Source: Catajapyx aquilonaris (taxonomy: Eukaryota). From it: a stretch of DNA of 43,150 nt. Below are positions 37,401 through 39,966 of this stretch, one piece after another. The stretch is from assembly GCA_000934665.2 (NCBI GenBank), contig JYFJ02003345.1, positions 1-43,150 of the forward strand, written 5' to 3'. A model generated the notes under the pieces. It saw nothing but the letters and a program-made list of their open reading frames with translations. It did not search any database and was not told where the DNA came from. Positions within the stretch are counted from its first letter, which is position 1. Every line of letters starts with the position of its first letter. The position numbers and the translations under genes were made by a program.

Positions 37401-39966
37401 ATTTGGAACAGATGTTAACCAATGTTAACATTTAGAACAGATGTTAACCAATGTTAACATTTAGAACAGATGTTAACCAATGTTAACACGTAGAACAGAT
37501 GTTAACCAATGTTAACATTTAGAACAGATGTTAACCAATGTTAACACTTAGAACAGATGTTAACCAATGTTAACATTTAGAACAGATGTTAACCAATGTT
37601 AACATTGAGAACAGATGTTAACCTAAGTTAACGTTTAGCATATGTTAACATAATATGTTAACATTGGGTGGTGAAACCCGGCCTGAGTAGACAGAACATT
37701 TTTTTTTCCAAAAGTGTTTTCTGAGGGAACATCTTCAGACAATACACTTTTTGAAAAATTGTTGCGTCTACGAGAGTCTATGAGTGTACTGACGGAAGTC
37801 ACTCGTATCCAACCAGAGTAGAATGCCACTGGCACACTTCCAGTTGCAGTTCACTTGGCAGTAATTTAGTGCTCGCCCCCACCACCATTACACAGCACCG
37901 AAACTGAAACACCACCGTTGACACCCTTTTTTTTTTTGCGTATTGTTTGCAGTTGAAAGACTCACTCATTAACCCACCGACCTCATATTATAATTAAGTT
38001 GTGTGCTCCCAGCATGTTGAGTTAAAAAAAAAAATAACTATGCATGTGTCCATTTTCCTTTTTTTTTTGCATCTTGCTCGACGGTCTACTAGAGACTTGA
38101 AACTAGACAACGTGATGCTAGATAGTAGCGGCCATGTGCGACTGGCCGACATGGGCATGTGCAAGATAGGTGTGAATGACCAGCACCTGGCAAGCACCTT
38201 CTGTGGCACTCCTGACTACATTGCACCTGAGGTCAGGTCAACCACTAATAAATTTTTGCAACCAACTTTAATTTTTAAAAATTAAATTGAAAGCCACTTA
38301 TTTTGCATTGTTTCGTGTAGATTATCAAGGGGTTGAAGTACAACCAGTGCGTGGACTGGTGGGCCTTCGGAGTGCTCCTCTACGAGATGATGATTGGTCA
38401 GTCTCCTTTCAACGGGTGCGATGAAGATGAACTTTTCTGGTGCATTTGTCACGAGCAAGCCTACTATCCCAGATTCCTCAGCAAGGAGGCCAAGAGTATT
38501 CTTGTTCTGGTGGGTATGCTACTCCGGTATTGTTGTTTTTTTCCCATCAAGCATACAATTTGCACTTTGTGGAGCGGAGCAGGTATGCCTATACAGCTAT
38601 GCAGCTGTTCGTATAGAAAGAGGCACAGGATTCCATGGCATCATGTCTGCAGAAGCAAAGATTGACAAATTAGTGGTGTTATACAGTAATTTACTCTCAA
38701 AACTGCTGCTTTAATGTCACTTTAGCAAATATTTGAAAAAGGTGCTGCACCATTTAATTTCAATAAGCAGCAAAAATTAAACAATGTGCCCCACATTTAA
38801 TTGCAGCTCCTAGAGAAAGACAGTTCCAAGAGGCTGGGGACACCTAGTTGTCCAGCTGGTGACGTTTGCGACCAACCATTCTTCAAACCGATAGACTGGG
38901 AGCGACTTGAGAGCAAGGAGATTGAACCTCCCTTCAGACCTCGCACTGTGAGTCCCATTACATGTCGTGTGTGACACGCATGCGTTGCATGATGTTTGTT
39001 TTTTCGTTTTATTGCCGTGTTCCAGACGCATGCGGCAGACACGTCCAATTTTGATGAGGAGTTCACTAATGCCAAGCCCATCATCACTTCATTAGAAAAG
39101 TCTGTGTGTAGACTCATAGATCAGGAAGTGTTTGAAGGGTTCTCATGTGACAACTCCAGCAAGTGGGAGTCCAATTGATGTGAGTGTTATTATTTTTTTG
39201 CATGTGCACCCCGGTTATTATTATTATTTCCTCATGTGAGGTACCAACCAGGGGCTTCTATGTTCCTCCCTGCATATTTGGTGATTCAAGCAGTGGTTAC
39301 CCAACCTGTAGACCATGTTGCATGAACTGGCTGACTTCCAGCATCAGGTGCTCGCAACTGTGGCTCTTGAGATGTATGCCGCAAATTGAGTTGAAAATAG
39401 CTCGCTATCATGGAAAGTGCTTCTTGACGTGCATGAAAGTGCTTTTCAATACAGTCTAGTTCAATTCCTTTTTTTTTTTGGTATTGTGCAAGGAGTAATG
39501 GCAAGTATTTACACACCTAACTCCTACATGTATGCATTTGGTCAGTGTACGTGTGTACGGCAATATTTTTCAAATGCAAGGTATCATACACACCGATTTG
39601 TAAATGAATTTTACGCTGCACCTATCAGGATTTCACTATTAGCCACGAGTTATCATCTTGACATTGTCATATTATGAACAAAAGATAATGAGGAGTCAAT
39701 TATTTGTAAGTTGGAAAGTTTGCCAAGAGAACCCGTACTATTAACAACTTGGGTTTCTCTTGTGCGGTGAATTTTTACTGGTTTCGTTGCATCTAATTAT
39801 GTGGACATTATTTTGACAGAGCAACCCTCTGGACGTGCAGTATTTTGACTCGGCTTTCACGATGGAGAAGGCGCAGTTGACCCCTGTGGACAAGGAGATC
39901 CTTCAGTCCATGGACCAGACGCAGTTCCAAGGCTTCAGCTACACAAATCCTAACACCACCGACTGA
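7455..39966 (+). CDS. Pkcdelta: Novel protein kinase C delta-like, full-length isoform (731 aa, 15 coding exons)
   Basis: join(7455-7483,8883-9019,9637-9887,22178-22238,28779-28941,29181-29212,31322-31407,31493-31622,35980-36081,36166-36599,36727-36881,36954-37092,38321-38509,38807-38947,39820-39966) = 2196 nt, all GT-AG and phase-consistent. N-terminal C2 ([19 protein letters not shown]), pseudosubstrate [10 protein letters not shown], two C1 domains, GKGSFG/AIK/RDLKLDN/DFG/APE kinase motifs, turn motif LTP, hydrophobic motif FQGFSY. Confidence 0.93.
8883..9019 (+). CDS. Pkcdelta: PKC delta exon, C2 domain part 1
   Basis: TTTCAG acceptor and GTAATT donor. Encodes [13 protein letters not shown]...[15 protein letters not shown]. 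Confidence 0.9.
9637..9887 (+). CDS. Pkcdelta: PKC delta exon, C2 domain part 2
   Basis: CAACAG acceptor and GTAAGT donor. Encodes [13 protein letters not shown]...VLVDKC...NVW. Confidence 0.92.
15567..15600 (+). promoter_or_regulatory. Intragenic Inr + DPE core promoter for alternative first exon
   Basis: TCAGTA Inr-like motif (A+1 = 15569) with GGACG at exactly +28..+32 (15596-15600). Confidence 0.6.
15752..15859 (+). CDS. Pkcdelta: PKC delta alternative first coding exon ([10 protein letters not shown]...SYQE); C2-truncated isoform, ~628 aa
   Basis: GAG/GTGTGT phase-0 donor compatible with the exon at 22178. An in-frame ATG at 15731 is an alternative start. The MMFT start resembles insect PKC delta N-termini as recalled, not searched. 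Confidence 0.75.
20140..20183. repeat. (CT)n microsatellite, ~21-22 units
   Basis: Perfect dinucleotide run. Confidence 0.97.
22178..22238 (+). CDS. Pkcdelta: PKC delta 61-nt exon, end of C2 domain ([20 protein letters not shown])
   Basis: TTTTCCAG acceptor and GTATGT donor. Phase 0 to 1 bridges 9887 (or 15859) to 28779. Corresponds to the LDLQPQAKVLMSVQYF segment of vertebrate PKC delta. Confidence 0.88.
26491..26740 (-). mobile_element. Non-autonomous Helitron-like remnant
   Basis: ACTAAC plus hairpin CCGT-TCTTCTC-ACGG at one end, internal GTGTGCCAAGTTTCA, and CAAACAGAGAAACTTTCTGCTTTATGTATATAA at the other end. This layout is typical of short arthropod Helitrons. Pattern recognition only. 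Confidence 0.5.
28779..28941 (+). CDS. Pkcdelta: PKC delta exon: pseudosubstrate and C1a part 1
   Basis: Encodes [40 protein letters not shown], with TTACAG/GTAAGC boundaries. Confidence 0.97.
29181..29212 (+). CDS. Pkcdelta: PKC delta 32-nt exon, C1a ([10 protein letters not shown])
   Basis: TTTTCAG/GTAAGT boundaries, phase 2 to 1. Confidence 0.95.
31322..31407 (+). CDS. Pkcdelta: PKC delta exon, end of C1a
   Basis: Encodes [28 protein letters not shown], with TTCCAG/GTGAGT boundaries. Confidence 0.96.
31493..31622 (+). CDS. Pkcdelta: PKC delta exon, C1b part 1
   Basis: Encodes [43 protein letters not shown], with TTGCAG/GTACTA boundaries. Confidence 0.96.
33040..33432 (+). mobile_element. 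Degenerate non-autonomous Helitron-like remnant
   Basis: Starts ATAATATAAAGCTGAAAGTTGGTATGTCCG, has internal GCTGAAATGTGGCACAC, and ends ACGTTTGCCAAGGACTACTTGT (decayed hairpin-CTAG end). Pattern recognition only. Confidence 0.4.
34641..34674 (+). promoter_or_regulatory. Intragenic TATA + Inr core promoter
   Basis: TATAAG at 34641 lies 30 nt upstream of the A (34671) of a consensus TCAGTT initiator. Confidence 0.7.
34733..35534 (+). CDS. Pkcdelta: PKC delta alternative large first coding exon (MPVAKLFY..., 267 aa); isoform lacking C2, pseudosubstrate, C1a and half of C1b, ~702 aa
   Basis: Long GC-rich ORF inside the C1b-splitting intron. It ends TCC G/GTACCG in phase 1, compatible with the acceptor at 35980, and composition turns AT-rich right after. 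Confidence 0.8.
35980..36081 (+). CDS. Pkcdelta: PKC delta exon, C1b part 2
   Basis: Encodes [34 protein letters not shown], with TTTCAG/GTACCT boundaries. Confidence 0.95.
36166..36599 (+). CDS. Pkcdelta: PKC delta exon: Ser/Asp-rich hinge and kinase N-lobe
   Basis: Encodes [17 protein letters not shown]...[27 protein letters not shown]...FCTFQTE, with AACAG/GTAAGT boundaries. Confidence 0.96.
36727..36881 (+). CDS. Pkcdelta: PKC delta exon, kinase subdomains V-VIa
   Basis: Encodes [20 protein letters not shown]...[21 protein letters not shown], with GACAG/GTAAAG boundaries. Confidence 0.96.
36954..37092 (+). CDS. Pkcdelta: PKC delta mutually exclusive exon A (catalytic loop to APE, DFG form)
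   Basis: 139 nt, phase 2 to 0. Encodes [46 protein letters not shown]. Confidence 0.95.
37265..37666. repeat. 29-bp minisatellite (GAACAGATGTTAACCAATGTTAACATTTA) x ~13
   Basis: Tandem units with degenerate ends. Most units carry the palindrome AATGTTAACATT. Confidence 0.95.
38093..38231 (+). CDS. Pkcdelta: PKC delta mutually exclusive exon B (catalytic loop to APE, DMG form)
   Basis: 139 nt, phase 2 to 0, polypyrimidine tract plus TAG acceptor, GAG/GTCAGG donor. Encodes [46 protein letters not shown]. Confidence 0.9.
38321..38509 (+). CDS. Pkcdelta: PKC delta exon, kinase subdomains IX-X
   Basis: Encodes [39 protein letters not shown]...AKSILVL, with GTGTAG/GTGGGT boundaries. Confidence 0.96.
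38807..38947 (+). CDS. Pkcdelta: PKC delta exon, subdomain XI and start of AGC tail
   Basis: Encodes [11 protein letters not shown]...[25 protein letters not shown], with TTGCAG/GTGAGT boundaries. Confidence 0.95.
39026..39178 (+). CDS. Pkcdelta: PKC delta alternative C-terminal tail exon A (50 aa)
   Basis: TTCCAG acceptor, phase 0. Encodes [57 protein letters not shown] donor follows at 39180. Confidence 0.88.
   Translation, partial: THAADTSNFDEEFTNAKPIITSLEKSVCRLIDQEVFEGFSCDNSSKWESN
39820..39966 (+). CDS. Pkcdelta: PKC delta C-terminal tail exon B (48 aa)
   Basis: TTGACAG acceptor, phase 0. Encodes [48 protein letters not shown]. Confidence 0.94.
   Translation, partial: SNPLDVQYFDSAFTMEKAQLTPVDKEILQSMDQTQFQGFSYTNPNTTD

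Follow-up and report, generated by a model that had tools for sequence, protein, structure and literature searches.

A diverged second C-terminal tail exon, a candidate minor alternative in the manner of PRKCB, in a delta-type protein kinase C gene of Catajapyx aquilonaris

The stretch of DNA considered here, referred to as the window, is an entire contig of 43,150 nucleotides (nt) (JYFJ02003345.1) from the 286-Mb genome of Catajapyx aquilonaris and carries a protein kinase C (PKC) gene on its + strand. Behind the last common kinase exon of this gene lie two homologous exons, here called tail A and tail B, each of which encodes a whole C-terminal tail of the AGC kinase type. Tail A appears to be an intact, strongly diverged second tail exon, probably used through splicing as a minor, regulated substitute for tail B by a route like that of mammalian PRKCB, a reading to which a probability of roughly 0.6 can be assigned. 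The exons and signals concerned are the following, 3' UTR denoting the 3' untranslated region:

36954..37092, + strand: K3a, activation-segment exon with DFG, 139 nt, used in the transcript contig that skips tail A
38093..38231, + strand: K3b, duplicate activation-segment exon with DMG, 139 nt, a second alternative module of the same gene
38807..38947, + strand: K5, last common kinase exon, ending in ..PPFRPRT, phase 0, with a GTGAGT donor directly after ACT; spliced in contig 2 of run X1
38948..39025, + strand: predicted K5-A intron, 78 nt, with a T-rich acceptor (11/16 pyrimidines, against 9/16 for tail B)
39026..39179, + strand: tail A exon, 50 codons, after TTCCAG, reading THAAD..NFDEEFT..IITSLEK..FEGFSC..N-stop
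39086-39088, + strand: turn Thr of tail A, with Ser next
39131-39148, + strand: hydrophobic motif FEGFSC of tail A
39176-39178, + strand: stop TGA of tail A, followed by one more base (39179) and then the donor
39180..39185, + strand: GTGAGT right behind tail A, a candidate donor by sequence only, its hexamer identical to the used donor of K5
39820..39966, + strand: coding part of the tail B exon, after GACAG, reading SNPLD..YFDSAFT..LTPVDK..FQGFSY..TD-stop, with stop TGA
39880-39885, + strand: turn Thr-Pro of tail B
39925-39942, + strand: hydrophobic motif FQGFSY of tail B
39967..41300, + strand: long 3' UTR contiguous with tail B; the transcript contig extends beyond 41300

Judged by its exons, the host gene is a delta-type novel PKC, with a C2-like region upstream of two C1 exons and with kinase exons closest to annotated PKC-delta. 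With the first kinase exon as query, most of the 120 matches listed are homologues of PKC-delta from arthropods, with identities of 80-89%, and in a ten-exon comparison with 17 proteins the top scorers were Daphnia proteins and one further protein.

Exons A and B both follow K5 in phase 0, align in register without gaps and start four residues before the conserved Asp, and the intron position of A is that of B and of the PKC-epsilon-type and conventional-type tails of this genome. Both are recognized by the Pfam family Pkinase_C (PF00433, curated cut-off 20.9 bits), tail A at 46.8 bits and tail B at 54.3 bits. The intron in front of A lies inside the range of the gene's short introns in the spliced form (72-127 nt), the GC content at third codon positions of A (0.56) falls within that of the other kinase exons (0.51-0.79), and the intron after A has 39% GC. 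Tail B is 71-83% identical to six arthropod tails, and A has a single copy in the genome, where the runner-up sites reach 36-45% identity. As A stands outside the cover of any RNA or second DNA data set, it might be a chance match or an assembly artefact in which a piece of another kinase gene was joined in, but its score relative to the cut-off, its single occurrence, its correct phase and orientation and the normal 78-nt intron behind K5 leave that explanation with next to no probability.

Of 48 residues, 15 are the same in tails A and B, and the identities at the first, second and third codon positions are 0.50, 0.56 and 0.31. Fifteen family-conserved columns were defined from 11 non-redundant PKC-type tails (72/73 tails in register); A keeps 13 of them and B 14, and 12 of the 15 residues common to A and B sit in conserved columns (p 7e-6). 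In 3000 simulated neutral decays of B, matched to A's first-plus-second codon-position identity with B, at most nine columns were kept and none scored above 24 bits with the profile that gives A 59.7 bits; 515 of the 3000 stayed free of stops over 44 codons. Column retention and the neutral simulations together indicate that A was under protein-level selection for most of its history, and by these sequence comparisons tail A is no neutral relic and has been subject to purifying selection in the past.

The hydrophobic motif follows the pattern F-x-x-F-S/T-aromatic, which the F-E-G-F-S-C of tail A matches at five of six positions, with Cys in place of the aromatic residue; two naturally occurring epsilon-like tails (P0156 and P0159) likewise have Cys directly behind the hydrophobic Ser. 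Ungapped alignment to the PKC beta-II tail places the turn site of A at T21 and its hydrophobic site at S40, and T21 of both tails aligns with the beta-II turn Thr, T641 (numbering of PMC13385876). The residue that follows the turn Thr (column P22) is Ser in A and Pro in B, the Pro being invariant in 7/7 B-type tails.

The candidate donor behind A is unlikely to be placed there by accident, since the sense strand of the gene (31,067 nt) contains 20 copies of GTRAGT, which gives a probability of about 0.006 that one of them begins no more than 10 nt from a given position. Joining K5 to A and A to B yields two consecutive stops, TGA-TAG, and the last exon would then be untranslated. Mammalian PRKCB behaves in this manner, inclusion of the beta-II exon making the last exon untranslated through its own stop (PMC3537621). 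An initial annotation of this DNA had already described two phase-0 exons that each encode a whole AGC tail with the motifs given above, altered contexts of the turn and hydrophobic sites, a GTGAGT 1 nt after the stop of A, the TGA-TAG join and the PRKCB-like layout, and all of this is borne out by the coordinates, the frames, the Pfam scores and the differing residues after the turn Thr and the hydrophobic Ser.

Its further reading of A as a cassette exon is weakened. AATAAA is indeed absent between A and B, but a candidate intronic poly(A) signal is present there (39448..39479, + strand), made up of AATACA at position 39448 and a run of 11 T 16-26 nt downstream, at 39469-39479. With such a signal A may be a functional alternative last exon, in which cleavage at the intronic site means that B is never reached, the GTGAGT behind A is of secondary importance and the same protein is made from a message with a short, different 3' UTR. 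A run this T-rich stands behind only 3 of 85 signal-like hexamers in the window; the hexamer is non-canonical, however, T-runs are frequent in the gene's introns (families D3, D5 and D6), and a consensus donor lies 1 nt past the stop of A, which makes the last-exon route distinctly unlikely. That a functional minor isoform with tail A exists, be it through splicing or through the last-exon route, is on the whole quite likely.

Transcript evidence comes from one public run that covers the region, listed without a stated kind and seen to be spliced, examined over 37700-41300 in four records of assembled contigs, a type of data in which rare variants are lost. The main contig is spliced K3a-K4-K5-B, with the join 38947>39820, and continues through more than 1.3 kb of 3' UTR; a loose end of the contig and the letters inserted in it are K3a sequence. 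Tail B is the form used in the sampled run. The contigs have no cover over A or K3b, and only the join across A was counted as evidence. A hairpin predicted at 38964..39045 (+ strand), in which intron positions 38976-38984 pair with the first bases of A, covers the acceptor of A (-31.5 kcal/mol, z -2.07, 4/200 shuffles equally stable) and is the most stable among 13 acceptors tested, the site having been picked after seeing the fold; as a weak lead from this model, the hairpin may account for default skipping of A.

Several observations weigh against the use of tail A as a spliced alternative. The only spliced contig skips A. Besides the Pro next to its turn Thr and the aromatic residue, tail A has lost the family residues E16 and L20, it forms a long branch with 1.9 changes per column in a 48-column tree, and the selection test indicates past constraint, not current use. 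The relatives speak in the same direction, the closest ones in these comparisons being Daphnia. Among 49 homologous metagenome loci, the 22 with K5, the intron and tail B were scanned (27 were left out, 7 without an intron there and 20 without a usable K5 match; the 22 are not independent and include four near-identical termite-like loci). A profile that scores A at 59 bits in the window detected no second tail at any of the 22 loci, either inside the final intron or in the DNA downstream, and 12 of the 22 introns, two Daphnia-like ones (94 and 169 nt) among them, measure 55-169 nt and are too short for such an exon. Of 253 proteins taken for comparison, 193 have a delta-type K4 exon, and 185 of the latter include a tail; in each of these 185 related PKC-delta proteins the tail gives B a higher score than A. 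Tail B likewise closes every one of the 15 proteins listed for the main Daphnia cluster. A search of 1.84 billion representatives with A gave 10 matches, the eight short ones being generic PKC-type tails at 43-56% identity, an orthologue search among longer proteins gave 3 matches from 8 candidates, all fungal kinases, and K5 used as bait gave 14 matches from 100 candidates, none with A next to it.

One candidate from the locus scan was rejected: a 16-bit match in the intron of locus L051 is the beginning of that locus's own tail B and represents no second tail.

These observations could also mean that A is a once-working tail that has fallen silent, given up so recently that stops have still to accumulate in it. 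It is skipped in the only transcript contig and is missing from all relatives examined, so that it is dispensable elsewhere, and the long branch and the lost Pro and final aromatic residue would be expected of such an exon. Against this, A contains neither stop nor gap, has consensus splice signals on both sides and keeps 13 of the 15 conserved columns, with its Cys after the hydrophobic Ser recurring naturally in P0156 and P0159; a silent exon is unlikely on this account. On present data tail A is likely to be lineage-restricted, judging from the sequences compared, and it may possibly be common to relatives outside the sample.

The initial annotation had proposed a convergent tail switch in a novel PKC and had named, as grounds for abandoning it, that only the 38947>39820 junction be observed and that tail A not be conserved. 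Both were formally found, with low power (one contig set, Daphnia as closest relatives): the 38947>39820 junction is present, a junction that includes A was not seen in the one contig set, and the conservation search yielded no orthologue of A. The proposal stands for the delta-type host and for the separation of A from the beta-II-like tail of this genome, described below; inclusion of A is putative, 38947>39820 being the only junction seen.

The origin of A was addressed by approximately unbiased (AU) tests, which rest on 48 columns with a long branch. A position of A as sister to the gene's own B is weakly rejected (p 0.033) and a grouping with the conventional, beta-II-like upstream tail of the same genome is rejected (p 0.015), and placements with the group of B, Daphnia and termite tails (0.33) or with the epsilon-type tail (0.34) are not rejected. 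That A does not group with the beta-II-like conventional tail fits an independent origin. The simplest reading is that A stems from an old tandem duplication and then changed fast, or that the duplication is still older and other lineages have lost it; under the proposed splicing alternative, A would have arisen by old tandem duplication and stayed under selection as a protein. Orthology with the PRKCB event finds no support, the host being delta-type and the grouping of A with the conventional upstream tail being rejected.

The likeness to PRKCB lies in the arrangement: a single donor is followed by two homologous whole-tail exons in tandem and in the same phase, the upstream one ends in a stop of its own, and there is an intron four residues before the conserved Asp, as in the conventional-type tails of this genome. 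The differences are that the host here is a delta-type novel PKC whereas PRKCB is conventional, that both PRKCB tails are expressed whereas tail A is unseen in RNA contigs and relatives, and that beta-II has Pro after the turn Thr and an aromatic residue after the hydrophobic Ser whereas tail A has neither. The PRKCB tail event has been dated to Bilateria with both tails expressed (PMC9741552, table S2), and the same survey of tandem duplicated exons, by Martinez-Gomez et al., describes a swapped homologous C-terminus in 77/236 human events; PRKCB, Pkc53E and pkc-2 figure in it as PKC genes that host such events repeatedly, in vertebrates, arthropods and nematodes, the fly event being classed as another region (PMC9741552). 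In its supplement PRKCD, Pkcdelta and tpa-1 have 0 occurrences and there is no row for a delta-type PKC. A search of the literature found no report of alternative tails of arthropod PKC-delta, and the available part of a 2025 survey of crustacean PKCs (PMC12608923) leaves alternative tails unmentioned; its PKC sequence files may contain A-type forms. By analogy, A would resemble the PRKCB switch in its working and represent a separate event, with membership in the class depending on expression. The tail switch is a known kind of event, here in a PKC subfamily, the delta type, for which the search found no report. The best-scoring annotated counterparts in the ten-exon comparison, the 'putative protein kinase C delta type homolog' of Daphnia pulex, magna and carinata (RefSeq isoforms), share tail B and the K3a/K3b pair with the gene in the window, but differ in having tail B only among listed members and Daphnia-like last introns without a second tail.

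A family search of the same genome gave 17 tail matches. Tail duplication is thus frequent among these kinases; a second tail such as A gains credibility from this and at the same time becomes less surprising, and the expression in relatives of the same gene's other duplicate exon, K3b, was counted in favour of A.

Other tail loci of this genome were recorded alongside. Contig C2204 carries two conventional-type whole-tail exons 6 kb apart on one strand (L071, 13784-13972; L072, 19862-20014), the upstream one beta-II-like and grouping with a vertebrate conventional tail (93/89), the downstream one beta-I-like; no other kinase exon is present in the 32.5 kb of the contig that were read, and both tails presumably belong to one gene. 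On contig C82 (86167-86492, minus strand, L073) the exon that supplies the front half of an atypical PKC tail, turn site included, is present twice in tandem, a candidate mutually exclusive pair. Near-identical PKN-type 3' ends occur on different contigs (C8371:1432-1770 and C5533:9367-9705) and are either alleles or a recent duplicate.

If A is spliced in as proposed, its inclusion would turn B into 3' UTR, as in mammalian PKC beta-II, and the kinase encoded by the K5>A>B message would have the same regulatory and catalytic domains, unchanged as far as ..PPFRPRT, and differ in its final 50 residues. Junction-dependent decay of messages is governed by the 50-nt rule. The stop of the A form would lie 1 nt before the last junction, and decay of this kind is therefore not expected. 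The A tail is predicted to be still phosphorylated at the turn Thr and the hydrophobic Ser and to dock on the kinase. Phosphorylation at these two motifs primes and stabilizes PKCs (PMC13142937, PMC9352922), in PKC alpha and beta-II the turn motif, once phosphorylated, is bound by the WW domain of Pin1 (PMC11060717), and a swap of about 50 residues holding both phosphorylation sites changes the activation of PKC beta in crystal structures (PMC13385876). As A lacks the Thr-Pro turn motif and has Cys for the aromatic residue, the A form is predicted, by extrapolation from conventional PKCs, to differ in priming, Pin1-type binding, stability or localization.

The same changes allow A to be seen as an off-switch, whose inclusion would give an unstable message or an unprimed, fast-degraded kinase and in either case less PKC-delta. 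Inclusion would shift the stop by ~150 nt upstream on an already long 3' UTR, and the turn and hydrophobic contexts are altered in A, but an off-switch has no need to retain 13/15 tail residues in register at such divergence, and this explanation is accordingly very improbable.

Since the PKC tail bears two of the three priming phosphorylation sites, a second switch in a delta-type PKC would, if true, mean that the design is not limited to the conventional subfamily, and with tail A nature would offer a way to test whether maturation and turnover require Pro behind the turn site and an aromatic residue behind the hydrophobic site. The significance is lower if A is rare in use and restricted to a single lineage, as the present data allow. 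A more far-reaching proposal, tentative and rather doubtful, is that one gene specifies two-by-two kinases, combining a DFG or DMG activation segment with a Thr-Pro/FSY or Thr-Ser/FSC tail, and that tail duplication recurs in three PKC subfamilies. If this were true, two of three priming sites would be swapped independently, and the A form would be a natural novel PKC without a Thr-Pro turn and with Cys in its hydrophobic motif.

The K3b orthologue is present in Daphnia RefSeq isoforms, in two genomic loci and in one spliced locus (L014). A linkage of K3b and tail A as a pair was considered and finds no support, K3b occurring with tail B in nine proteins and in L014. Protein P0089 has a DYG version of the activation-segment exon, and the intron separating K3a and K3b holds a 29-nt tandem repeat with about 12 overlapping, self-complementary copies (window 37209-37701).

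A putative readthrough extension, which according to the initial annotation would be removed by the tail switch, is unsupported: an open frame of 45 codons also arises in 1578 of 5000 base shuffles, the fold has a z of -1.43, and no similar peptide follows the stop in 11/11 related loci. An adjacent gene with two zinc-finger-like Cys/His motifs lies on the minus strand (window 41023-42303). The coding part of this gene and the PKC 3' contig overlap, perhaps because the transcripts themselves do so or because unstranded data were merged. A 21-nt inverted repeat, 81% complementary, connects 38900-38920 in exon K5 with 40072-40092 at the start of the 3' UTR and may be due to chance. Upstream, a long open reading frame in the intron after the second C1 exon (window 34733-35534), whose donor at 35534 joins the kinase exons in frame, is a candidate alternative first exon that would give a form without C1 and C2, comparable to the long N-terminal isoforms annotated in Daphnia and insects.

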